From contig JAGVZH010000014.1 of assembly GCA_018302745.1 (NCBI GenBank), forward strand, positions 1 through 37,235: 37,235 nt of DNA, in the 5' to 3' direction. Shown here piece by piece: positions 20,134 to 34,245 of the stretch; position 1 is the first letter of the stretch; each line of letters opens with the position of its first letter. The position numbers and the translations under genes are program-made. The stretch comes from Candidatus Woesearchaeota archaeon. GTDB taxonomy: Archaea; Nanobdellota; Nanobdellia; SCGC-AAA011-G17; JAGVZH01. A model generated the notes under the pieces. That model made no database searches. It was not told where the DNA came from and saw nothing but the letters and a program-made list of their open reading frames with translations.

Positions 20134-20694
20134 ATGGCATTAAGCACATTAACAGTAACATTAATTGTTCTTGGGGCCATAGTTTTGTTTATCATACTCC
20201 TTTTCAATGCGCTGATAAGGCTCAAGAACCAGATAGAAAACTCATGGGCGCAGATAGATGTCCAGCTTAAGAGAAGGGCTGACCTTATCCCGAATCTTGT
20301 AAATTCCGTAAAAGGATACATGAAGCATGAAAAAGGAGTTCTTGAATCTGTGACAAAAGCAAGAACCTCTTTCCTTAATGCAGGGGCTGACATGGGCAAG
20401 AAAGCAAAGTCATCCGACATGCTCAGCAATGCACTGAAATCATTGTTTGCAGTAAGCGAGAACTACCCCAAACTGCAGGCGTCGCAGAATTTCCTACAGT
20501 TGCAGGAGGAGATTACAGGAACAGAAAACAAAATATCCTATGCAAGGCAGCATTACAATGACATGGTGATGCATTTCAATACCAAACTGCAGACATTCCC
20601 AAACAACACGATTGCAGGAATGCTTCACTTTACAAAAAAACAGATGTTTGAAGCAGAAGCTTCTGAGAGGAAAAACATAAAAGTTGAGTTCTGA
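20134..20694 (+). CDS. lemA: LemA-family protein
   Basis: 186 aa. It has an N-terminal TM helix, then NSWAQIDVQLKRRADLIPNLV...YPKLQASQNF..LQ..L...EN.I...R..YN, the classic LemA pattern. Confidence 0.85.
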   Translation: MALSTLTVTLIVLGAIVLFIILLFNALIRLKNQIENSWAQIDVQLKRRADLIPNLVNSVKGYMKHEKGVLESVTKARTSFLNAGADMGKKAKSSDMLSNALKSLFAVSENYPKLQASQNFLQLQEEITGTENKISYARQHYNDMVMHFNTKLQTFPNNTIAGMLHFTKKQMFEAEASERKNIKVEF

Positions 20695-21542
20695 TGATAA
20701 TAGCCTTTGATGAGGTTAGAAACAATAAGATTAAGTCTGTCATTCTTATTTCATTTTTTATAATTCTTATAGGTTTTTTTGGGGCTGTGCTGGGGCTTTA
20801 TTATGGTAGCATTTATTTTGGATTGATATTCTCAATCATTGCAGGAATAATCTACACATTGCTTGTCTTTAACGCCGGCTCCAATATGATTCTTTCAATG
20901 AGCGGAGCCAAGCCTGTGACCAAGCAGGAATATCCTCATTTATACCATACTGTTGAAGGTCTAGCAGTTGCTGCCGGCCTGCCAAAACCAAAATGCTACA
21001 TTATTGAGGACAGCGCATTAAATGCTTTTGCAACAGGAAAAGACCCGAAGCATGCATCAATTACAGTAACAACAGGATTATTGAGCAAGCTAAAAAGACA
21101 GGAATTGGAAGGGGTAATCGGCCATGAGATGAGCCACATAAAGAACTACGACATCCGCTTCATGATGCTTGTTACTGTGCTTATCGGTGTTGTTACCTTT
21201 ATGAGTGATTTCCTGCTGAGGTCTTTCCTCTGGGGTGGCCATGGTAGAAGAAGGGACAGCGGCTCTATCGGAATAATTTTAATTTTGATTGGGATAGTAT
21301 TGGCAATACTCTCACCGCTGATAGGATATATGATAAGAGCTGCAATCAGCAGGAAAAGGGAGTTTGCAGCAGATGCCAGCGGGGCTGTACTGACAAGATA
21401 TCCTCCTGGTTTAGCTGATGCACTCGAAAAAATAAGCGGGGATCCGGACCCATTGGTTGACAAGGCAAACAAGGCAACCGCGCATTTGTTTATCTCGACA
21501 CCCATATATTCGCAACCCACCCTCCGATTCATGAAAGAATAA
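20694..21542 (+). CDS. htpX: HtpX-type M48 zinc protease, frameshifted at the 3' end
   Basis: 282 aa in the track. It has HEMSHIKNYD (HExxH) and EFAADASGA. The canonical C-terminus FATHPPIHERIKRLRAM* is encoded in the +1 frame at 21509-21562. It overlaps lemA as TGATG. Confidence 0.8.
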   Translation: MIIAFDEVRNNKIKSVILISFFIILIGFFGAVLGLYYGSIYFGLIFSIIAGIIYTLLVFNAGSNMILSMSGAKPVTKQEYPHLYHTVEGLAVAAGLPKPKCYIIEDSALNAFATGKDPKHASITVTTGLLSKLKRQELEGVIGHEMSHIKNYDIRFMMLVTVLIGVVTFMSDFLLRSFLWGGHGRRRDSGSIGIILILIGIVLAILSPLIGYMIRAAISRKREFAADASGAVLTRYPPGLADALEKISGDPDPLVDKANKATAHLFISTPIYSQPTLRFMKE

Positions 21543-23367: not shown

Positions 23368-24083
23368 AAAACTTCCCCTTCAGACATTCAACATTGTCAG
23401 AAAGAAAAGAATTTTATGAAAAAGAATTTTCTGTTAGCAAAATTAAAAAATGGTTTAAGTCAAATAATCTTCCTTTGCCCCAGTTATGCGCATTAGACCC
23501 TGGAAGTGAAACCAAGATTATTCTGGATAAAAAGTTAAAAAATAACTTGCTTTACTTCTCATTTAATCAATTGCCTAGAAAGATAAAGCAGTATATTCCA
23601 GAGGATGTTTATTATGATAGAAATATTTACAAAGATTATAAAAAAATCCTAAAAACGCTCAAATTTAATAATTACATTTCTCAAGAATTGGCATTTGATG
23701 TAGATGCAGATAATATAATATGTGATCATCCTAAAAATAAAAGTGTCTGCAAAAAATGCCTGAATAAAATTTACAAAGCTGCATTAAAAATGAAAGGGGA
23801 AATTAATGATTTGGGATTTAAAAAAATAGAGATTGTTTATTCTGGAAGAGGATTCCATGTTCATGTTATGGACAAAAAAGCTTCTTTATTATCTGTAAAG
23901 GAAAGAAGTTCATTAAATAAAAAATTTAAAAAATTTCCTATTGATCCTTGGGTTTCAAGAGGATATATAAGGCTGATAAGAATGCCCTACTCTTTAAATT
24001 CGTTAGTATCAAGAAAAACAATGCCAATAAAAACAAAAAAATTTAGTTCAAAAACAGGAGTCCCTAAGTTTCTGAAGAATTAA
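23364..24083 (+). CDS. priS: Compact archaeo-eukaryotic primase, PriS-like
   Basis: 239 aa. AEP motifs are present: LAFDVDAD (DxD), SGRGFHVHV and LIRMPYSLN. There is a Cys knuckle CDHPKNKSVCKKC. It overlaps gatE by ATGA. Confidence 0.7.
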   Translation: MKNFPFRHSTLSERKEFYEKEFSVSKIKKWFKSNNLPLPQLCALDPGSETKIILDKKLKNNLLYFSFNQLPRKIKQYIPEDVYYDRNIYKDYKKILKTLKFNNYISQELAFDVDADNIICDHPKNKSVCKKCLNKIYKAALKMKGEINDLGFKKIEIVYSGRGFHVHVMDKKASLLSVKERSSLNKKFKKFPIDPWVSRGYIRLIRMPYSLNSLVSRKTMPIKTKKFSSKTGVPKFLKN

Positions 24084-24193
24084 GCTCTTCTGCTTTTCTT
24101 TCCGTAATAGCTTCTTTTTTTCTTAGAAGCGCTTCTTGAAGTTCTTGCTCTTGAAGATACTCTCTTTGAAGCTTTCTTTCTTTTTGCAGCCAT
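24080..24193 (-). CDS. Very basic 37-aa protein (possible small ribosomal or nucleic-acid-binding protein)
   Basis: My own translation is MAAKRKKASKRVSSRARTSRSASKKKRSYYGKKSRRA. Its stop shares a TTAA with the priS stop, as at two other convergent gene pairs in the window. Confidence 0.35.
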   Translation of the reverse strand: MAAKRKKASKRVSSRARTSRSASKKKRSYYGKKSRRA

Positions 24194-24258
24194 AGCAACA
24201 CCTCTTTTGTTTTTATTTAATTAGATTCTAAAGTATATAAAATTTGCGTTAAGCAATA

Positions 24259-24268
24259 TTTAAATATA
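24259..24268 (+). promoter_or_regulatory. TATA-like box upstream of the acyl-lipid operon
   Basis: tttaaatata lies 21-30 nt upstream of the ATG at 24289. Confidence 0.4.
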
Positions 24269-24288
24269 AAAGAATATTAATAATAAGA

Positions 24289-26643
24289 ATGAGCAAAAAA
24301 GAAGAGTCAATTCAAAATTTAATTCTGAATTATTTAAAGAGAAATAAAAATAAGAAAGTAATAGCAATAAGAATAGGCTATAGAACATTTTATGCTACAG
24401 GAAAAAGTCTTTCAGAAAAAATAGCTAAAATTCAGGAGCTTTTTAAAAATGAAAATATCTCAAAGGGGGATAAGATAATTATTTTTGGAAAGAATTCAAT
24501 AGAATGGATATCTGTTTATTTTGCTTCAATTTTGTCAGGGACTATAATAATTCCATTGGATTTATTAACAGACCATTCTTTACTAAAAAAAATTCAGAAA
24601 CAGGTTAATGCAAAAGCCATCTTTCAGGACTCTAATTTAGTAAGATTAAAGCCTGTTAAAAAATTTTATCTTGATAATCTTGATGATAGTCTAAGATTAC
24701 TTAAAAATGAGGCAATATACTCTGAGAATATACTTGATGATGACATTTTGGAAATAATTTACACTTCTGGCTCAACAGGAGATCCAAAAGGAGTTGTCTT
24801 AACAAATAAAAATATAACCTCTGGATTAAATTCTGCTAGATCTTCAGTAAAGTTAAATTTTAAACTGAAAATTCTTAATCTTCTTCCATTAAGCCATATT
24901 CTTTCCCAGATCTATGGCTTATTTCTTTTGATGCATTCAAACAATCAGATTTATTTCATGGATTCTATAAAATCAAAAAAAATAATTTCATTTATAAGAA
25001 ATAAAAAAATTAACGGGGCTATTTTAGTTCCAGGAATTTTAAGGGCTTTAAAAAAAGATCTTGAAAATAAATCATTTATCTCAAACTTAGGACTGCAATT
25101 CAGATTTTTTGGAGTCGGAGGATCTTTTTTAGACAATGAATTAGAAAAATGGTTCAGAAGACATCTTATTTTAGTAATTCAGGGATATGGATTAACAGAA
25201 ACTTCATCTGTCCTAACTACAAATACTCTATTTTCCCAAAAAGTGGGAAGTGTTGGTAAGATAGCAAAAGATGTGGATGTTAAAATTTCAGAAGATGGAG
25301 AAATTTTAGTAAAAGGTAATAATGTAACATCCTGTTATTATAAAGATTCTGAAAAAACAAAAGATTCATTTGAAGGACAATGGTTTAAAACAGGTGATTT
25401 GGGATATTTAAAGGATAATTATATTTATCTCAAAGGGAGGAAAAAAGATATTATCATAACAGGCACAGGCCTTAATGTTTATCCTTCCGATATAGAAAAA
25501 GTTTTAAACAAATTTCCGGAAGTAAAAGAAAGCTGTGTTCTGGAAAAAAACGATAAAATACATGCTGTATTAATATTAAAGAAAAAAACTGATTTAAACA
25601 AACTGGTAAAAGGGGCAAATTCCATGCTTCTTGCACACCAAAAAATTTCATCTTATTCTTTATGGCATGAAAATAATTTTCCTAAAACAAATACTGGAAA
25701 GATAAAAAAATTCATTGTTTCCGAAGAATTGGAAAAAATAAAAGCAAGATCATATTTTTATAAAGAAGAATTGCATAAAATAATAAATAATGTTCTGAAT
25801 CCTTCCAATAAGATTAAAGAAAACTCAAAGCTTTCTGACTTAGGTATGGATTCTTTGAGAAGAATAGAGCTTATTTCTGAAATAGAAGATGAATTTGGGA
25901 TTGGATTAAATGAAGCTGATATAAACCAGTATACAAAAGTTTCTGATCTAAGAAAATTAATGGCAAAAGAAAAGTTAGAGGAAATAAAGTTCAAAAAATG
26001 GCAGTTAAATCCTTTAGTAAGAATTTTTGGAAACATATTAAGAGTAATTATTTCATATCCTTTAGTCTTTAGCTTTGCAAAAGTCTCATATGAAGGCCTT
26101 GAAAATCTTAAAGATTTAAAGTATCCGGTAATATTTGCAAGCAATCACCAAAGTGCATGGGATCCTGTTGTAATAATAAAGTCTATAAAAACTAGAACTG
26201 CGATTCCCACACATCCAATGATTTTCGGAATAGGAGTTAAAAAGCATAAATTAAAAAGAAAAATTAGGGGTTTTTTAGCATCTTTAGCCTTTAATGCCTA
26301 TCCTTTTGGAGAAAAAATAGGAACAGAAAAAAGCTTAGAGTTTACAGCAGAGATGATAGATGATAATTACAGTATTTTAATATTTCCCGAAGGCAGAAGG
26401 ACAAATGACGGAAAAATAAAGCCTTTTATGCAGGGAATAGGATATCTTGCTTTAGCCATGAACTTGCCGATAATTCCAGTAAAGATTTCGGGCTTATTTG
26501 ATATTCTTCCGATAAATAAAACAATGCCAAAAAAAGGCAAGGTTATTGTAAAGTTTGGAAAGCCAATAAATCAGGATAAATTAAAAAACATTTCTTATAT
26601 TAAAGCGACTAAATTAATTGAAAAAAAGGTTAAAGAACTATGA
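24289..26643 (+). CDS. Tri-domain fusion of acyl-AMP/CoA ligase, acyl carrier domain and PlsC-type acyltransferase
   Basis: 784 aa. Ligase motifs are TSGSTGDPKG (24763-24792), GYGLTETS, WFKTGDLG and NTGKIKK. The carrier motif is LGMDSLRRIEL, with the Ser codon at 25852-25854. Acyltransferase motifs are NHQSAWD (HX4D, 26143-26163) and FPEGRR (26383-26397). Confidence 0.85.
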   Translation: MSKKEESIQNLILNYLKRNKNKKVIAIRIGYRTFYATGKSLSEKIAKIQELFKNENISKGDKIIIFGKNSIEWISVYFASILSGTIIIPLDLLTDHSLLKKIQKQVNAKAIFQDSNLVRLKPVKKFYLDNLDDSLRLLKNEAIYSENILDDDILEIIYTSGSTGDPKGVVLTNKNITSGLNSARSSVKLNFKLKILNLLPLSHILSQIYGLFLLMHSNNQIYFMDSIKSKKIISFIRNKKINGAILVPGILRALKKDLENKSFISNLGLQFRFFGVGGSFLDNELEKWFRRHLILVIQGYGLTETSSVLTTNTLFSQKVGSVGKIAKDVDVKISEDGEILVKGNNVTSCYYKDSEKTKDSFEGQWFKTGDLGYLKDNYIYLKGRKKDIIITGTGLNVYPSDIEKVLNKFPEVKESCVLEKNDKIHAVLILKKKTDLNKLVKGANSMLLAHQKISSYSLWHENNFPKTNTGKIKKFIVSEELEKIKARSYFYKEELHKIINNVLNPSNKIKENSKLSDLGMDSLRRIELISEIEDEFGIGLNEADINQYTKVSDLRKLMAKEKLEEIKFKKWQLNPLVRIFGNILRVIISYPLVFSFAKVSYEGLENLKDLKYPVIFASNHQSAWDPVVIIKSIKTRTAIPTHPMIFGIGVKKHKLKRKIRGFLASLAFNAYPFGEKIGTEKSLEFTAEMIDDNYSILIFPEGRRTNDGKIKPFMQGIGYLALAMNLPIIPVKISGLFDILPINKTMPKKGKVIVKFGKPINQDKLKNISYIKATKLIEKKVKEL

Positions 26644-26972
26644 AAATAAGAATAGGATGCGATATAGTAAAAATCAGCAGATTTGATAATATCAAGAAGA
26701 AAACTCTGGAAAGAATATTCCACAAAAATGAAATTAAAAAATCAAAAATGAATCCAGAAACTCTTGCAGGGATTTTTGCTGCAAAGGAAAGCTGCAAAAA
26801 AGTCTTTAATGATATTAATTGGCATGATATAGAAATTAAGAAGAAAAGAAATGGCAAACCTTTGCTTATCTTAGGAAAAGACAAAGGCGTAGCAAGTTCT
26901 GACTTAAGCATTAGTCATGATGGAGATTATGCTATAGCCAGTGTGGTTTTTTTAATTCGTGAGGTTCAATAA
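26640..26972 (+). CDS. acpS: Holo-ACP synthase (AcpS-type 4'-phosphopantetheinyl transferase)
   Basis: 110 aa. It has IGCDIVKISRF, FAAKESCKK and LSISHDGDYAIASV, matching the AcpS pattern (G.D.v...R...., .A.KEA..KA, .S.SH....A.A). It overlaps the upstream gene by ATGA. Confidence 0.8.
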   Translation: MKIRIGCDIVKISRFDNIKKKTLERIFHKNEIKKSKMNPETLAGIFAAKESCKKVFNDINWHDIEIKKKRNGKPLLILGKDKGVASSDLSISHDGDYAIASVVFLIREVQ

Positions 26973-27809
26973 TGGCTACTTCAATATGGATTATTTTAAG
27001 AATAATTCGGTTGATACTGTGTTTAATTTTTTTTAAGTATCCATCCTCCCAAGCATTCCGATAAAGATATTCCCTCAAATTATGGCTTAAAATATGATAA
27101 TATATCTTTTATGACATCTGACGGAATAAAGATAAAGGCTTGGTTGATTACCTCTAAGAAGGCCAGTGGAACTGTAATAATCGGTCATGGATATCCTTTT
27201 AATAAAGGGAACATACTGCATGTTGCAAAATTTCTTTATCCTGATTATAATCTCGTTTTTTATGATCACAGGTATTTTGGTGAAAGCTCTGGATTTATAA
27301 CTACTGTTGGCTTTAAGGAAGTAAAAGATATAGAGGCCACTATAAAATTTGTAAAGGAAAGATTTGGTAAAAAAGAGCCTATCGCACTATATGGATTTTC
27401 TCTTAGTGCATCAGCAATGATCATGTCTAAGGCAGATGTCAATGCAATTATAGCTGATTCATCATATGCTGATTTGAGTAGAATGATAGAGCACACATAT
27501 TCAATATTTGGTTTTTTAAAATATCCTTTCGTTAAAACTACGGAACTTTATTCTATAATATTTTTAAATATCCATCCTAAAGAAGTTTCTCCAGCTTTGG
27601 CTATTAAAGACACTAATGTACCTTTGTTTGTTATTCATGGAGAAAAAGATAGCCAAATTCCGGTTGAAAATGCATATGCATTAAAAGAAAGCAATCCTAA
27701 TATAGAACTTTGGATAGCGAATGGTAGTGATCACGGTCAAGCTTATGCCCTTTACAAAGATGAATATACTAGTAGAATTAAATCATTTTTGGAAAAACAT
27801 ATGAAATGA
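26972..27809 (+). CDS. Membrane-anchored alpha/beta hydrolase (esterase/lipase-like), split by a frameshift in a T8 run
   Basis: Track ORF 27111..27809 has the nucleophile elbow YGFSLSA, plus HGEKDS and GSDHG (Ser-Asp-His). That frame stays open upstream to 27027 without an ATG. A second frame from the ATG at 26972 (TAATG overlap with acpS) encodes the TM helix MATSIWIILRIIRLILCLIFF. The two frames meet at tttttttt, 27027-27034. Confidence 0.7.
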
Positions 27810-29029
27810 AATCGTTAAAAAAACAAATATTTGGCTGGAGCATGTATGATTTTGCCAATACCATCTTCTCTGCCTTGTTTATTACTGTTTATTTTCCTTT
27901 GTTTGTAGTTCTTAATGGAGGCACTTCTTTTTATGTAGGACTAACAATGTCTATATCTATGTTGTTGGCAGGATTGCTAGTTCCTTTTTTAGGGGCAATT
28001 GCGGATATTACTCAAAGAAAGAAGCTTTTGCTGTTTATTTTTACATTATTATCCTGCATATTTACACTATTTACCGGACTTTTTGACTTAACTTTGATTT
28101 TAATATTAGGCTTACTTGCAAATTTCTTTTATCATGCAAGTTTGGATGTTTATGACTCTTTGCTTGTTGATATCTCAAGTAAAAAAAATATTGGGTGGAT
28201 ATCTGGAATAGGAACTGCTGTTGGTTATTTAGGGACTATATTAAGCGTTGCAATAGCTTATATTGTCGGATTAATTTATGGTTTTGAAACTACGCAGGGA
28301 ATAAGAATAATATTTTTATTAGTAGCAATATTATTTTTTAGTATTTCTCTAATTACCTTTTTTTATGTTAAAATAACTTCAAAGGTTAAAATCAAAAAAG
28401 AGCATTTTTCTGAAGCTTTTAAAAGAGTAATTTTTACAATTAAGAATATCAAACAATTTAAGCATATAGGGATATTTTTATTAGCTTCATTTTTATATAT
28501 GGATGCGGCTAATACCTCAATAATCTTTTTATTCTTATATGGCAGGGACCAATTAGGCTTAAGCCTAGTTCAGTTTCTTCCCCTTTATGTCTTGATGGCT
28601 ATAGCTGCTTTTATTGGTTCTTTGATTTTTGGAAAAATAACAGATAAAGTTGGCCATAAGAAAACATTAACTATGGTTTTATTTTTATGGGTTTTAGTTA
28701 TTTTGAATTTATATATAAAAACAACATATACAACATTCATAATTACAGGCATTTTCGGAGGAGCTTTATTGGGAGGCATATGGACAATTACAAGGCCTAT
28801 CCTGGTTGAATTATCGCCAAAGGCTAAAATAGCAGAATTATTTGGATATCAGGGATTAACTGAAAAATTTTCAGGCGTAATAGGACCGGCATTATTTGGC
28901 TATGTAGCTACTTTCATTGATTTTAGACAGGCTCTTTTGGTTGTCATTGGCTTATTCTTAGCAGGAGCATTAGTTCTTTCATTTGTTAAGAAAAATAAGG
29001 AAAAGTATTTAAATAAAGATTTAGGATAA
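27806..29029 (+). CDS. MFS permease, UMF1/Atg22-like
   Basis: 407 aa with multiple TM helices. The N-terminal GWSMYDFANTIFSALF matches the W.(L/M)YD.AN(S/T) signature of that MFS family. It overlaps the hydrolase gene by ATGA. Confidence 0.65.
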   Translation: MKSLKKQIFGWSMYDFANTIFSALFITVYFPLFVVLNGGTSFYVGLTMSISMLLAGLLVPFLGAIADITQRKKLLLFIFTLLSCIFTLFTGLFDLTLILILGLLANFFYHASLDVYDSLLVDISSKKNIGWISGIGTAVGYLGTILSVAIAYIVGLIYGFETTQGIRIIFLLVAILFFSISLITFFYVKITSKVKIKKEHFSEAFKRVIFTIKNIKQFKHIGIFLLASFLYMDAANTSIIFLFLYGRDQLGLSLVQFLPLYVLMAIAAFIGSLIFGKITDKVGHKKTLTMVLFLWVLVILNLYIKTTYTTFIITGIFGGALLGGIWTITRPILVELSPKAKIAELFGYQGLTEKFSGVIGPALFGYVATFIDFRQALLVVIGLFLAGALVLSFVKKNKEKYLNKDLG

Positions 29030-29061: not shown

Positions 29062-29295
29062 ATGAAAAACCTTAATATTTTTTTGTATACTGCGATTGTT
29101 GTTGTTCTTTTAATTGCAGCTGTTTTAATACAGGAAAAAAGAATGGAATTGGAAGCAAAGGAAATATGTCAAAAAAATAACCTGAGCTATCAAAGCAAAA
29201 TAAAAGAAAACTCTTTTCAATTAAAAGCTGCTTTATGCAAATCAGGATGCAATAATGATTTCTGCAAGGTTAGCTTTTACCAGATTAAACCATAA
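29062..29295 (+). CDS. Small N-terminally anchored Cys-containing protein
   Basis: 77 aa with one TM helix and 4 Cys in the exposed part. It overlaps the convergent UbiB gene by 11 nt. Confidence 0.4.
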   Translation: MKNLNIFLYTAIVVVLLIAAVLIQEKRMELEAKEICQKNNLSYQSKIKENSFQLKAALCKSGCNNDFCKVSFYQIKP

Positions 29296-30934
29296 CTTTT
29301 TTATTTCTTATCCCTGAATAAAGCAAGATTACTAGTAGAATAGATGCCATAAAAAATCCGAAGTATGCTATTAAATTAGCCCTTCCAGAATTTAATACCA
29401 AACCAGAGCCGATAATCAAAGCAGCAGTAATGACGCCCAAAACAATCTTATTGCTGCTTCTTCCAACTTCCCTTTCAAGCTCAGCAACATCCTTATGCTC
29501 TAACTGTAGCTTTAGCTGCCCTTCTTTTAATCTTTCTAGAATCTCTGATGTATGCTTTGGAAGTTTACTGAAATCTTTTCTTAAGTTAAGTAAATCCAGT
29601 AAAGTTCCCTTAAATAATTTTAATGGGCTTATTCTTTTTTTGATAAGATGCTCTACATAAGGTCTTGACTCTTCAATAAGATTAAACTTAGGATCTAATT
29701 CCCTTCCCAATCCCTCTGCTGTTATCATGCCTTTGCTTAATAACACTAGATCAACAGGAATCTTTGCTCCGTATTTAACTCCAAGATTCATAACACTATA
29801 CAAAAGTCTTCCTGGATTTATATCTTCTAATCTCCTGTCATAATACTCACCAAGATAATCAATCAGGTCTTCCCTGAACTCATGGTTATCAACTTCCCTG
29901 CTTATTATTCCTATGCTGGCAAACCCATTTACAATCCCTTCCATGTCTTTTCTTATCAAAGCTATGAACAAATCAGTCAGATTTTCTCTTGTTTCCTCAT
30001 CTAACTTTCCAACTATCCCAAAATCCAAAAAAGCAATTCTGTCAGACCTTAAAACTAGAATATTTGCAGGATGAGGGTCTGCATGAAAAAAGCCAAATTC
30101 AAAAACCTGTTTAAAAAAGCTGTTCACTATTGTCTTTGCTATCTTCCCCCTGTCAAACTGCCCCTTAATCTCTCCTATTTTCATGCCTTCGATAAAGCTC
30201 ATAGTCAAAACTCTTTTTGAGCTGTAATCCCAGTAAACTTTAGGAACCCTTACTGCAAAATCATCTTTAAAATTTCTATAAAATCTTGAGATATGCCTTC
30301 CTTCAACAGTATAATCCAATTCTTCTTTTGTATATCTCTCAAATTCCCTGATGATTTCCTTGAGATTTATATTTTTCAGCTTTTCACTATGTGCAGAAAA
30401 TAGTTCTTCTAAATGGTACATTATGTCAATATCGTCCCTTATCATCTCTTTTATGTCTGGCCTTTGAACTTTAACAGCTACTCTTTCTCCATTTTTCAGA
30501 ATAGCCTCGTGAACCTGTCCAATAGAGGCAGATGCTATGGGAATTTCTTTAAAAGATGTAAATATTTCATTAAATTCCTGCTTAAGGTCTTTTTTTATTA
30601 TTTCTTTTACCTTGTCAAATGAAAAACTAGCAATATCATCTCTTAATTTTCTAAATTCCTTGCAATATTCTTCATTAATTAAATCTGGTCTTAAGCTTAA
30701 CAATTGTCCAAGTTTAACGAAAGTAGGTCCTAATTCCTCAAAAGCTTTTCTTAATCTGACGCTGTCACTTTGCTTCATAGTCAGAATTTTATCAGCAAAT
30801 CTCTGTCTTCCCATATATGGCAGATAAGAATGCAGTTTTAAGTCCTCAAAAAAGTGGCCAAATCCATATTTTGTAAAAACAGTGACTATCTTCCTTATTC
30901 TGTTAGCGTCTCTGAAGCCCTGAACAATCCCCAT
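29285..30934 (-). CDS. UbiB/ABC1-family atypical protein kinase
   Basis: 549 aa. It has ELGPTFVKLGQLLSLRPDL, ASIGQVHEA, VAVKVQRP and HADPHPANILV, with C-terminal TM helices. Confidence 0.85.
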   Translation of the reverse strand: MGIVQGFRDANRIRKIVTVFTKYGFGHFFEDLKLHSYLPYMGRQRFADKILTMKQSDSVRLRKAFEELGPTFVKLGQLLSLRPDLINEEYCKEFRKLRDDIASFSFDKVKEIIKKDLKQEFNEIFTSFKEIPIASASIGQVHEAILKNGERVAVKVQRPDIKEMIRDDIDIMYHLEELFSAHSEKLKNINLKEIIREFERYTKEELDYTVEGRHISRFYRNFKDDFAVRVPKVYWDYSSKRVLTMSFIEGMKIGEIKGQFDRGKIAKTIVNSFFKQVFEFGFFHADPHPANILVLRSDRIAFLDFGIVGKLDEETRENLTDLFIALIRKDMEGIVNGFASIGIISREVDNHEFREDLIDYLGEYYDRRLEDINPGRLLYSVMNLGVKYGAKIPVDLVLLSKGMITAEGLGRELDPKFNLIEESRPYVEHLIKKRISPLKLFKGTLLDLLNLRKDFSKLPKHTSEILERLKEGQLKLQLEHKDVAELEREVGRSSNKIVLGVITAALIIGSGLVLNSGRANLIAYFGFFMASILLVILLYSGIRNKKVMV

Positions 30935-31591: not shown

Positions 31592-32953
31592 ATGTTAAGG
31601 ACTCATAATTGCGGTGAATTAACTAAAAAAGACAAAGGAAAAGAAGTAATTTTATCAGGTTGGCTGCATTCTTCAAGAGTTCAAAAAAAATTCAGTTTTA
31701 TTGATTTAAGAGATAGATATGGAGTGACACAATTATTCTTAGATGAAAAATTTAATGACCAAATTTCAAAATTAGGAAAAGAATCTGTTATACAGGCTAA
31801 AGGTATTGTTCAGGTAAAACCTGCTCCAAATCCAAAATTAAAAACTGGAGAAATAGAAGTTAAGGTTTCTTCTATAGAAGTTCTGAATGAATCAGATGAG
31901 TTGCCTTTGGATTTGTCTGGAGAGATTGAATCAACAGAAGAAACAAGATTGAAGTACAGATATCTGGATTTAAGAACAGAAAAGATGAAGAATAATATAA
32001 TAACAAGGTATAAAATTACAAAATCAATAAGGGATTCTCTTCACAAACAGGATTTTTTAGAGATAGAAACTCCTATGCTGGCAAAGTCAACTCCAGAAGG
32101 TGCAAGGGATTATTTAGTTCCTTCGAGAGTTAATCCAAAAAAATTCTTTGCCCTTCCACAGTCGCCCCAGATATTTAAGCAGTTATTGATGGTTTCCGGA
32201 TTTGACAGATACTTTCAGATAGTAAGATGCTTCAGGGATGAGGATTTAAGAGCTGACAGGCAGCCAGAATTCACTCAATTGGACATGGAGATGAGTTTTG
32301 TTGGAGAAGAAGATGTTTATTTTGCAATAGAACAGTTAATGAAAGATATCTGGAAAGATGTTTTGAACATTAATATAAAAATCCCATTCCAAAGAATGAC
32401 TTATGAAGAAGCTATAAAAAAACATAAAACTGACAAGCCAGATTTGAGAAAAAACAAAGATGAATATGCATTTTTGTGGGTTACAGATTTTCCATTGTTG
32501 GATTTTAATGAAGAAGAAAAGAGATATGTTGCAATGCACCATCCATTTACAAGCCCAAAATTAGAAGATGTTAAATTGCTTGACAAAAATCCTGAAAAGG
32601 CAAGGGCAAGAGCCTATGATTTAGTATTAAATGGAGAGGAAATTGGCGGCGGTTCGATAAGGATCCATAAAAAAGAATTGCAGGAAAAAATATTCAATGC
32701 TATTAAGATGACTAAAAAAGAGGCTGAAGATAAGTTCGGGTTTTTGATGAATGCTTTTAAATATGGAGCCCCTCCTCATGGAGGCATTGCATTAGGCTTG
32801 GATAGGATAGCAGCAATAGTGACTGGAAACAGCAATATAAGGGAAGTTATAGCTTTTCCAAAAAACCAGGATGCAAAGGACTTGATGATGGGTTCTCCAT
32901 CTGAAGTTGATAAAAGTCAATTAAAGGAATTAGGAATAAAGTTTGAAAAATGA
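31592..32953 (+). CDS. aspS: Aspartyl-tRNA synthetase, bacterial-type sequence without the GAD insertion
   Basis: 453 aa. It has MLRTHNCGEL, FFALPQSPQIFKQLLMVSGFDRYFQIVRCFRDEDLRADRQPEFTQLDMEMSF, HHPFTSPK and GGIALGLDR. Confidence 0.88.
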   Translation: MLRTHNCGELTKKDKGKEVILSGWLHSSRVQKKFSFIDLRDRYGVTQLFLDEKFNDQISKLGKESVIQAKGIVQVKPAPNPKLKTGEIEVKVSSIEVLNESDELPLDLSGEIESTEETRLKYRYLDLRTEKMKNNIITRYKITKSIRDSLHKQDFLEIETPMLAKSTPEGARDYLVPSRVNPKKFFALPQSPQIFKQLLMVSGFDRYFQIVRCFRDEDLRADRQPEFTQLDMEMSFVGEEDVYFAIEQLMKDIWKDVLNINIKIPFQRMTYEEAIKKHKTDKPDLRKNKDEYAFLWVTDFPLLDFNEEEKRYVAMHHPFTSPKLEDVKLLDKNPEKARARAYDLVLNGEEIGGGSIRIHKKELQEKIFNAIKMTKKEAEDKFGFLMNAFKYGAPPHGGIALGLDRIAAIVTGNSNIREVIAFPKNQDAKDLMMGSPSEVDKSQLKELGIKFEK

Positions 32954-34245
32954 AATTTATATCAATACAGGAAGCATTGGATAAAAAAGAAGGAAAGGTT
33001 TCTCTAAGAGGATGGGTTTACAGGGAAAGAAAGCAGAAAGAGATGGCTTTCATAGTCATGAGAGATTCCTCAAACATAATTCAGTGCGTAGTGAAGGAAG
33101 ACAAAGTTAGCAAAAAAGAATGGGAAGACGCAAACAAGATTCTTATTGAATCATCATTAGAAATAGAAGGAACTTTAAAAGAGGATAAGAGAGCCCCAAC
33201 AGGCTATGAATTACAAGTTTCTAAATTGAATGTTATTCATTTTGCAGAAAAATTTCCAATCTCAAAAGACCATTCTCCGGAATTTTTGCTTGATGTAAGG
33301 CATCTGTCATTAAGATCAAGAAAATTAACCAATGTTTTAAAAGTGAGATCAACAGTTTTTAAAGCAATACATGATTACTTCAGGTCATTTGGATATTATG
33401 AGTATCATTCTCCCTGCTTCACTCCAAATGCAGCAGAAGGAGGCTCAACTCTGTTCAAAGTGGATTATTTTGGCAAGCCGATTTATCTTACTCAAACCTG
33501 GCAGTTATATGCAGAAGCAGGAATTTTTGCTTTGGAAAAAATATATACAATAGCGCCTTCATTCAGGTCAGAAAAATCAAAAACATCAAGGCATCTAACA
33601 GAATATTGGCATGCCGAAGTTGAGACTGCATGGCAGCATTTTCCTGAACTATTAGATCTGGCAGAAGGATTAATAAAATATATAGTAAAAACAGTACTAA
33701 AAGAAAACAAAAAAGAATTAGATATATTAGGAAGGGATACAAAAAAACTAGAGCCTATAGTAAAGGAAAAATTTCCAAGAATAACTTACAAAGAAGCTTT
33801 GAAAATCCTTGAGCAAAAGGCGAAAATAAAAATTCCATACGGAAAGGACTTAAGGACAGTAGAAGAAGATGCTTTGTCAAAACTTTATAATACTCCTGTT
33901 TTTGTAACGCATTATCCAAAGATAATAAAGGCTTTTTACATGAAAGAGGATGATAAAGATAAAGGTGCAGTTTTAGGCTCAGACTTAATAGCGACAGAAG
34001 GTTATGGGGAAATTATTGGGGCAAGTGAAAGAGAAACAGATATTAAAGAGCTGGAAAAGAAACTAAAAGCTCAGGGTGAGGACCCAAAAAAGTATGGATG
34101 GTATTTGGATACAAGAAGGTATGGAAGTGTTCCTCATGCCGGATTTGGATTAGGTGTAGAAAGAGTGATTGCATGGGTTTGCGGCTTGGATAATATTAAG
34201 GATGCTATTCCATTCCCAAGAACAATGTTAAGGTATCAGCCTTAA
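32950..34245 (+). CDS. asnS: Asparaginyl-tRNA synthetase
   Basis: 431 aa. It has YLTQTWQLYAE, FRSEKSKTSRHLTEYWHAEVE and WYLDTRRYGSVPHAGFGLGVER. It overlaps aspS by ATGA. Confidence 0.85.
   Translation: MKFISIQEALDKKEGKVSLRGWVYRERKQKEMAFIVMRDSSNIIQCVVKEDKVSKKEWEDANKILIESSLEIEGTLKEDKRAPTGYELQVSKLNVIHFAEKFPISKDHSPEFLLDVRHLSLRSRKLTNVLKVRSTVFKAIHDYFRSFGYYEYHSPCFTPNAAEGGSTLFKVDYFGKPIYLTQTWQLYAEAGIFALEKIYTIAPSFRSEKSKTSRHLTEYWHAEVETAWQHFPELLDLAEGLIKYIVKTVLKENKKELDILGRDTKKLEPIVKEKFPRITYKEALKILEQKAKIKIPYGKDLRTVEEDALSKLYNTPVFVTHYPKIIKAFYMKEDDKDKGAVLGSDLIATEGYGEIIGASERETDIKELEKKLKAQGEDPKKYGWYLDTRRYGSVPHAGFGLGVERVIAWVCGLDNIKDAIPFPRTMLRYQP

Follow-up and report, generated by a model that had tools for sequence, protein, structure and literature searches.

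A predicted fatty-acid salvage and lipid re-acylation enzyme with a built-in carrier, encoded by the first gene of a four-gene DPANN operon

Closest described systems and the Woesearchaeota locus

In Escherichia coli, Aas combines fatty-acid activation and a PlsC-family acyltransferase in one polypeptide, is encoded beside a major facilitator superfamily (MFS) gene and, with its partner transporter LplT, serves to re-acylate lysolipid with salvaged fatty acid through an acyl carrier protein (ACP) thioester (PMC11416262). Its acyltransferase is N-terminal and its synthetase C-terminal; it has no carrier domain and uses free cellular ACP. In Myxococcus xanthus, ElbD (MXAN_1528) contains an acyl-CoA synthetase (ACS), an ACP and an AGPAT-type acyltransferase as one contiguous core, and both its ACS and ACP activities, including the loading of fatty acid onto the in-cis carrier, have been confirmed in vitro (PMC9131029). 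Other phyla have been noted to contain ElbD-like homologues that lack the FAR1 domain (PMC9131029), and ElbD matches in metagenome-assembled genomes (MAGs) of DPANN Woesearchaeia were read as modifying host-derived lipids (bioRxiv 10.1101/2024.06.25.600576). PlsC homologs had been noted in DPANN earlier (PMC6431249). Here we analyzed a stretch of 37,235 nucleotides from a Candidatus Woesearchaeota archaeon (positions 1 to 37,235 of contig JAGVZH010000014.1, assembly GCA_018302745.1; hereafter the window), which encodes a protein of 784 residues that fuses an adenylation domain, a carrier domain and an acyltransferase domain in this order. We consider it probable that this fusion protein is a self-contained enzyme for fatty-acid salvage and lipid re-acylation, encoded by the first gene of a four-gene DPANN operon.

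The fusion protein shares with ElbD the ACS-ACP-AGPAT core within a single polypeptide, and its relation to ElbD rests on this common architecture together with the published Woesearchaeia matches (bioRxiv 10.1101/2024.06.25.600576). The two differ at the N-terminus, where ElbD carries a FAR1-like fatty-acyl reductase (FAR) domain and the window protein starts directly with the AMP-binding domain. They also differ in context, since ElbD belongs to the elbA–E operon of a myxobacterium, whereas the partners of the window gene, in an archaeal host, are an AcpS-type 4′-phosphopantetheinyl transferase (PPTase), an esterase and an MFS transporter. Compared with Aas, the order of the two catalytic domains is reversed and a carrier is built in, a contrast that the preliminary description of this sequence had drawn correctly. 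Similarity to Aas was low: the adenylation domains are 22% identical (E 6e-21), and the acyltransferases match over 47 residues (E 5e-7). We rejected membership in the Aas family, for which the scores (PRK06814, 140.8 bits against a cut-off of 1349; PRK08633, 126.7 against 1221) fell far below the thresholds and the domain order is reversed.

The window carries archaeal genes, among them those for ABCE1/RLI, deoxyhypusine synthase, TrmB, ATP-dependent DNA ligase, GatD and PriS (the small primase subunit), and it further encodes an MJ1316-domain protein and translin. Together with the GC content of ~31% and the nearest homologs of the fusion protein, this gene content points to a low-GC DPANN archaeon of the Woesearchaeota/Nanoarchaeota type as the source. 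The archaeal host matters because ACP and ACP synthase are absent from most archaea (PMC3533463).

Domains of the fusion protein

The open reading frame (ORF) of the fusion protein begins with ATG and runs without an internal stop. A motif search of the translation placed all six motifs of the preliminary description at exactly the residues it had given (TSGSTGDPKG at 159–168, GYGLTETS at 299–306, NTGKIKK at 468–474, GMDSL at 519–523 with Ser522, NHQSAWD at 619–625 and FPEGRR at 699–704). Its division of the protein into three domains was likewise borne out, as AMP-binding, PP-binding and Acyltransferase all scored over the Pfam gathering threshold. For the analysis of conservation, the fusion protein was aligned with 62 full-length homologs of 31–60% identity, ranging from DPANN to Acidobacteriota, and the catalytic residues of all three domains were invariant across these 63 sequences. 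All invariant residues given below refer to this alignment. Together, these features are far beyond chance. An AlphaFold2 model of the full-length protein, built on the same alignment, reached a mean pLDDT of 88.2 and a pTM of 0.85, and a separate AlphaFold model of residues 485–784 reached a pLDDT of 90.1.

The adenylation domain, of the ANL superfamily, consists of an N-terminal subdomain (~aa 1–385) and a small C-terminal subdomain (~aa 386–480). Pfam AMP-binding matched residues 32–351 (E 1.3e-50), and the AMP-binding C-terminal models matched weakly at 387–479. All ANL core motifs were found, namely A3 (159–168), A5 (299–306), A7 (368–372), A8 (GRxKD, 383–387) and the A10 lysine (Lys471), and each of them contains invariant residues: T159, S160, G161, P166, K167 and G168 in the A3 P-loop; G299, G301, T303 and E304 in A5; T368, G369 and D370 in A7; R384 and K386 in A8; and K471 in A10. 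The closest solved structure was that of Mycobacterium tuberculosis FadD13 (E 3e-41), followed by MenE, and the match to PRK06187 had an E-value of 2.5e-68. All NCBIfam matches of the domain remained under their cut-offs, with the scores of MenE-type ligases close to those of FadD types. In the A4 region the sequence is LPLSH, with P200, L201 and H203 invariant; this is the acyl-CoA-synthetase type, unlike the FDxS of nonribosomal peptide synthetases (NRPSs). A carboxylic acid that bears no alpha-amino group is accordingly expected as the substrate, most likely a fatty acid.

Fatty acyl-AMP ligases (FAALs) are recognized by an insertion of ~20 residues in the N-terminal domain, which blocks the reaction with CoA. 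We rejected a FAAL-type assignment for the window protein. Its residues 35–480 align end to end with residues 46–510 of FadD13, the window protein being the shorter of the two, which leaves no room for such an insertion, and the FAAL structures 3PBK and 3KXW gave partial matches only (E ~1e-19 to 1e-20). The preliminary description had the acyl group transferred without free acyl-CoA; this was an inference, and the adenylation domain resembles CoA ligases (FadD13, MenE) rather than FAALs.

In the carrier domain, Pfam PP-binding matched residues 494–554 (E 6.8e-11). The attachment residue Ser522 (codon 25852–25854) lies within LGMDSL and is the first residue of the modelled helix 522–536, which corresponds to helix II; two further helices were modelled at 494–503 and 551–558. 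Both the helical bundle and the position of the DSL serine at the N-terminus of helix II are as expected of a carrier, and Ser522 and its surrounding DSL motif are invariant even among sequences as divergent as these. The carrier part of the 485–784 model superposed on holo-ACPs with TM-scores of 0.71–0.76 and a root-mean-square deviation (rmsd) of 2.4–3.0 Å over ~70 residues, and in the structure search it was nearer to type II ACPs than to peptidyl carrier proteins (PCPs). A carrier region without the PP-binding fold, which the preliminary description had named as fatal to its proposal, was thus not what we found. These observations suggest that the in-cis carrier is functional. The strongest indirect evidence for this is the strict linkage to AcpS described below, in organisms where no further client of a PPTase is known, and the same linkage gives indirect support to a holo form of the carrier.

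The C-terminal domain matched Pfam Acyltransferase PF01553 at 599–734 (E 4.3e-18). Blocks I and III of the PlsC/AGPAT family are both in place, the former as the HX4D dyad His620/Asp625 (codons 26146–26148 and 26161–26163) and the latter as FPEGRRT at 699–705, with N619, H620 and D625 of HX4D and P700 and E701 of block III invariant. By phmmer, the C-terminal region aligned with Thermotoga maritima PlsC (5KYM) over ~170 residues (E 3e-11), so that the region is not degenerate outside the two motifs on which the preliminary description had relied. The same protein was the best Foldseek match of the 485–784 model (E 7e-12, TM 0.59–0.61), followed by PatA, GPAT1, a plant GPAT and LpxM, in agreement with a PlsC alpha/beta fold. 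Directly before the acyltransferase core, a helix at 575–594 was modelled with a pLDDT of ~89–94, and the 19-residue window starting at aa 579 (Kyte-Doolittle 1.65) is the second most hydrophobic of the fusion protein. As judged from the model, this helix probably anchors the domain at the membrane interface, resembling in this the N-terminal helices of PlsC. The domain thus shares with T. maritima PlsC, its best match in both sequence and fold, the HX4D and FPEGxR motifs and the hydrophobic helix before the core; it differs in being fused behind an adenylation and a carrier domain, in having an insertion between blocks I and II, and in block II itself.

In GPAT and AGPAT enzymes, the arginine of block II (GxxFIxR) binds the phosphate of the acceptor, glycerol-3-phosphate or lysophosphatidate. 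This block was not recovered in the window protein, where LAFNAYPF, which has no arginine, stands opposite GVFLDR of T. maritima PlsC. The same holds for the family, in which the consensus is FFNAYPF, with Asn669 nearly invariant and no arginine. Because the phosphate-binding arginine is missing, the acceptor is uncertain, and the label "lysolipid acyltransferase" used in the preliminary description is not established.

Against the PDB, Foldseek matched the full-length model to adenylating enzymes and to adenylation–carrier didomains. Among the closest fits was holo-EntF in the thioester-forming conformation (5T3D; TMq 0.60, rmsd 4.2 Å), and LgrA in the thiolation state (5ES8) fitted with an rmsd of 4.4 Å. 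The ternary complex of MenE (5X8F) fitted at 3.2 Å, as against ~10 Å for the MenE complex with OSB-AMP (5GTD). The model therefore places the carrier as in thioester-forming adenylation–carrier structures. This is also the state in which the adenylation–carrier part of the model superposes on NRPS-like enzymes of the adenylation–thiolation–X (A-T-X) type, such as carboxylic acid reductase (A-T-R), EntE-EntB and McyG (A-PCP), in which a loaded in-cis carrier likewise feeds one downstream domain. In those enzymes a reductase, condensation or thioesterase domain takes this place, whereas in the window protein it would be taken by a PlsC-type O-acyltransferase at the membrane interface.

Operon partners, gene linkage and family spread

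The fusion gene is followed by genes for AcpS, the esterase and the MFS transporter, with successive overlaps of 1–4 nt (Table 1). The ATG of AcpS and the stop codon that ends the fusion gene overlap (ATGA), and the AcpS product exceeded the NCBIfam cut-offs of TIGR00516 acpS (63.1 bits; cut-off 59.8) and TIGR00556 (67; cut-off 45.35). The start of the esterase gene overlaps the stop codon of AcpS (TAATG), and its catalytic body corresponds to the ORF 27111..27809. The start of the MFS transporter in turn overlaps the esterase stop codon, and its product matched Pfam MFS_1 (E 1.6e-39) and ATG22 (E 4.8e-32).

Table 1. Coordinates of the fusion gene, the parts of its product and the other operon features in the window
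Feature	Coordinates	Strand	Basis
AT-rich upstream region with AAAGTATATAAAA, candidate archaeal TATA-like element	24194..24288	+	read from sequence
Adenylation-carrier-acyltransferase fusion gene, 784 aa, first gene of operon	24289..26643	+	ORF, Pfam, model
ANL-superfamily adenylation domain, aa 1–480	24289..25728	+	Pfam, motifs, FadD13 match
ACP-like carrier domain, aa 490–560	25756..25968	+	Pfam PP-binding, invariant Ser, model
Hydrophobic/amphipathic helix, aa 575–594	26011..26070	+	hydropathy, model
PlsC/AGPAT-family acyltransferase domain, aa 595–784	26071..26640	+	Pfam, phmmer, Foldseek
AcpS-type 4′-phosphopantetheinyl transferase, 110 aa	26640..26972	+	Pfam ACPS, E 2.6e-11
Membrane-anchored alpha/beta-hydrolase (esterase)	26972..27809	+	three-frame translation, tblastn, Pfam
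MFS transporter, 407 aa, ATG22/UMF1-like, last gene of operon	27806..29029	+	Pfam

Homologs of the esterase are uninterrupted proteins of 288–289 aa with an N-terminal transmembrane helix. In the window, a one-base frame change within the T8 run at 27027–27034 puts the helix (MATSIWIILRIIRLILCLIFF) and the catalytic body into different frames, which might reflect an error in the assembly, a pseudogene or genuine frameshift, or slippage. The closest solved relative was the esterase 5G59 (E 1.7e-30 with the ortholog of locus L001, 2.7e-22 with the window sequence), with the Ser/Asp/His triad aligned. For the transporter, we rejected an identity with LplT, the partner of E. coli Aas, as there was no LplT model among its NCBIfam matches; BLASTP against E. 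coli LplT also gave no significant match (best E 0.031 over 21 residues).

We compared the surroundings of the fusion gene in 10 DPANN loci (the window and nine others) and two loci from the candidate phyla radiation (CPR). A homolog of AcpS adjoins the fusion gene in all 10 DPANN loci and was found in both CPR loci, adjacent in L008 and within ~1 kb in L045. The MFS transporter was near the fusion gene in 9 of the 10 DPANN loci, the contig of the tenth ending first, and in one of the two CPR loci. The esterase was found in six DPANN loci at 43–71% identity and in neither CPR locus; in L045, a different Hydrolase_4 protein is encoded ~3 kb from the fusion gene. The linkage was kept across at least four gene orders and among unrelated flanking genes (S8 peptidase, M24 peptidase, RNA polymerase subunits, ribosomal protein L15e, or rpS2 with enolase), which indicates that these genes move as one unit. 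In a TM6 genome and in a bacterium with contigs of several Mb, neither AcpS nor an MFS gene was found near the fusion gene; its solitary position would fit a housekeeping AcpS that is presumably encoded elsewhere in these genomes.

In four of the loci (L001, L005, L012 and L043), the transporter (67–75%) and the esterase (69–71%) are closely similar to those of the window, as against only 40–58% identity for the fusion protein. This would reflect either a faster evolution of the fusion protein or the joining of distinct fusion lineages to the same accessory genes. We found no published description of the linkage of the fusion gene with AcpS, esterase and MFS transporter, within an incomplete coverage of the literature, and Castelle et al. 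2021 make no mention of a four-gene operon.

The nearest homologs of the fusion protein (47–60% identity) were found in MAGs of Nanoarchaeota, Woesearchaeota and Pacearchaeota, and homologs at 30–37% identity in TM6/Babeliales, CPR (Beckwithbacteria, Liptonbacteria), Acidobacteriota and Desulfuromonadaceae. They align over 97–100% of its length, and every full-length protein among the best 120 homologs has the same three-domain architecture. A search with the carrier–acyltransferase half returned 182 cluster representatives (50% identity) with E<=1e-30 and 2234 with E<=1e-10; the proteins are mostly of 780–860 aa, with the match at the C-terminus. The family also includes variants: in P0205 (1115 aa) the carrier is followed by two acyltransferase domains (A-ACP-AT-AT), P0191 has a C-terminal glutaredoxin-like domain, and several proteins of ~300 aa (among the variants P0141, P0147 and P0180) consist of carrier and acyltransferase only, some of which may be fragments. 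When genome contigs were scanned with a 5-sequence alignment and carrier-domain patterns, true relatives were recovered in 4 of the 31 loci (L011–L014), the others being unrelated ACP or PlsC genes; a scan of metagenome contigs with the single fusion protein gave one partial match only. In a neighbour-joining tree of the family (distance-based, midpoint root), the DPANN sequences fell into at least two groups, to which those of CPR and TM6 stood nearest; the tree is too crude to indicate the direction of transfer. The fusion protein thus belongs to a known, largely uncharacterized kind. The architecture is widespread and ElbD has the same core, so that the novelty implied by the preliminary description was overstated. 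The architecture alone is ordinary, and the greater interest lies in the operon and its conservation among DPANN and CPR.

Upstream of the fusion gene, the AT-rich region contains AAAGTATATAAAA, a possible promoter element of the operon. A scan for sigma-70 promoters and terminators gave counts equal to those of shuffled controls, the sigma-70 model being inapplicable to an archaeal host. The adjoining intergenic sequence holds an extremely basic 37-aa ORF (MAAKRKKASKRVSSRARTSRSASKKKRSYYGKKSRRA; 24080–24193, minus strand), which is overlapped in another frame by a 45-aa ORF starting with GTG (24064–24201); either of them may or may not be a gene.

Several other features of the window were recorded. 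A gene pair encoding LemA and an M48 peptidase lies ~3 kb upstream of the fusion gene (20134–21542), in a patch with a higher GC content (0.40 as against ~0.31). A homolog of this M48 peptidase (42–47% identity) is also encoded near the fusion gene in the Woesearchaeota locus L011 (4257–5036), and in the CPR Beckwithbacteria locus L045 (14027–15804) the M48 homolog is accompanied by LemA and GatB. The occurrence of LemA and M48 near fusion genes may be a loose association or reflect a co-transferred block. A gene for a UbiB/ABC1 atypical kinase, a lipid- and quinone-related family, converges on the end of the operon from the minus strand (29285–30934; TIGR01982 E 1.7e-132, slightly under cut-off); we rejected it as a member of the module, as it does not stand beside the module in the other loci. 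Three tandem paralogous ORFs on the minus strand (351–839, 850–1335 and 1314–1784), with 33–41% mutual identity and no Pfam match, begin with MKKG[IV]SPLIA followed by a hydrophobic helix; these N-termini look like archaeal class III (type IV pilin-like) signal peptides. Finally, two tandem genes for class II aminoacyl-tRNA synthetases of the Asp/Asn/Lys type (31592–34245; 453 and 431 aa) overlap, the end of one with the start of the next, and GatD and a GatB/E-like gene are located elsewhere in the window.

Proposed function and competing readings

The preliminary description proposed a channelled transfer, in which an acyl group would pass from free acid to acyl-AMP, to the in-cis thioester and on to a lipid acceptor. 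In outline this is plausible, supported by the invariant Ser522, the structural matches to the thioester state and the AcpS gene that overlaps the stop codon; the acceptor as a lysolipid is the part that is not established. In the sequence of events that we consider probable, the co-encoded AcpS would add the phosphopantetheine arm to Ser522, and the N-terminal ANL domain would use ATP to convert a free fatty acid, probably one with a long chain, into its acyl-adenylate. After rotation of its C-terminal subdomain, the ANL domain would pass the acyl group to the carrier thiol, and the carrier would swing to the PlsC-type domain, held at the membrane surface via helix 575–594. There, His620/Asp625 would activate a hydroxyl of a membrane lipid acceptor, onto which the acyl group would be esterified. 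The esterase and the MFS transporter would probably supply the substrates, as fatty acids cut from foreign lipids, as imported or flipped lysolipid, or as both, so that the esterase, the transporter and the fusion protein could form a deacylation and re-acylation cycle for an organism unable to make fatty acids or free ACP. Such a cycle of salvage and remodelling would be analogous in logic to LplT/Aas of E. coli (PMC11416262), yet self-sufficient in its carrier.

Several points weigh against this proposal. The first lies in the acyltransferase itself: the FNAYPF segment lacks the block II arginine, and a lipid resembling lysophosphatidate may therefore not be what it acylates. In addition, the lipids expected in archaea are ether-linked isoprenoids, which offer no obvious glycerol hydroxyl for acylation. 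The absence of a FAAL-type insertion would permit the use of free CoA. With regard to the partner genes, the esterase is missing from 4 of the 10 DPANN loci and is frame-shifted in the window, the transporter is not a relative of LplT and its substrate is a guess, and a PPTase depends on a supply of CoA in the DPANN cell. Moreover, in the one relative that has been studied, ElbD, acyltransferase activity was undetectable in vitro (PMC9131029).

In another reading, which we regard as unlikely though deserving consideration, the acceptor would not be a membrane glycerolipid but a glycolipid, glycan, lipoprotein, amino-lipid precursor or small metabolite, or the acyl group would not be a long-chain fatty acid; the protein would then be an NRPS-like A-T-X enzyme for surface or secondary-metabolite modification. 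The missing phosphate-binding arginine would fit such an enzyme, as would the presence among the structural matches of LpxM and of PatA, a phosphatidylinositol-mannoside acyltransferase, since the LPLAT superfamily includes members with non-glycerolipid acceptors. The adenylation domain, with all its NCBIfam matches below cut-off and MenE-type ligases nearly equal to FadD types, and family variants such as A-ACP-AT-AT and the glutaredoxin-like tail point in the same direction. However, the best match of the acyltransferase in both structure and sequence is PlsC, a lysophosphatidate acyltransferase, and a hydrophobic helix precedes the domain as it does in PlsC. Among solved structures, the long-chain FadD13 is nearest to the adenylation domain, and the linked genes encode an esterase and a transporter rather than glycosyltransferases or NRPS and polyketide synthase components.

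The altered block II could also suit an acceptor other than lysophosphatidate within an ElbD-type ether-lipid pathway. In this case, the carrier-loaded acyl group would be passed to dihydroxyacetone phosphate or a related precursor, in a GNPAT-like reaction, as the first step toward ether lipids of the alkyl or alkenyl type, which is the role proposed for ElbD in Myxococcus. The shared ACS-ACP-AGPAT core (PMC9131029) speaks for this pathway, and ElbD matches in Woesearchaeia have been interpreted in this way (bioRxiv 10.1101/2024.06.25.600576), although the chemistry of ElbD itself is not settled (PMC9131029). We consider it improbable for the window protein, which has no FAR/NAD_binding_4 reductase domain. 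In the window and the DPANN loci, neither neighbours of the elbB/C/E type (HAD phosphatase, NAD-epimerase) nor an AGPS gene was found, and the conserved partners are instead AcpS, the esterase and the MFS transporter.

Use of acyl-CoA is widespread among PlsC-family enzymes, and the adenylation domain is CoA-ligase-like and free of a FAAL insertion, as would suit a simple FadD-PlsC fusion that makes and then uses free acyl-CoA around a vestigial or structural carrier. We regard this as very improbable, given that Ser522 and DSL are invariant in 63 divergent sequences, that the model positions the carrier as in thioester-forming structures, and that AcpS is strictly linked in the small genomes of groups that are generally without ACP (PMC3533463) or in which no ACP-requiring enzymes were seen (PMC7242380).

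Salvage of fatty acids and re-acylation of a membrane lipid by the fusion protein would have its place in what is known of these organisms. DPANN and CPR are without pathways for fatty-acid and lipid synthesis and are thought to obtain their lipids from other cells; lysolipids are abundant in CPR (PMC7242380). A tentative and rather speculative extension is that the four-gene unit is a mobile lipid-scavenging cassette common to DPANN and CPR, by which these ultra-small symbionts would take fatty acids off host lipids and esterify them anew onto imported lysolipids, so that some archaea might keep bacterial-type fatty-acyl ester lipids by means of the only ACP-dependent reaction of the cell.

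The operon bears on the question of how DPANN and CPR acquire and maintain their membranes (PMC7242380), and fatty-acyl ester lipids in any archaea would bear on the "lipid divide". It is a compact and expressible candidate, comprising the enzyme, its own PPTase, an esterase and a transporter. If fatty-acid salvage and lipid re-acylation prove to be its role, this would provide a function for a very large family in which the acyltransferase step has never been demonstrated and whose members are annotated merely as "AMP-binding protein".

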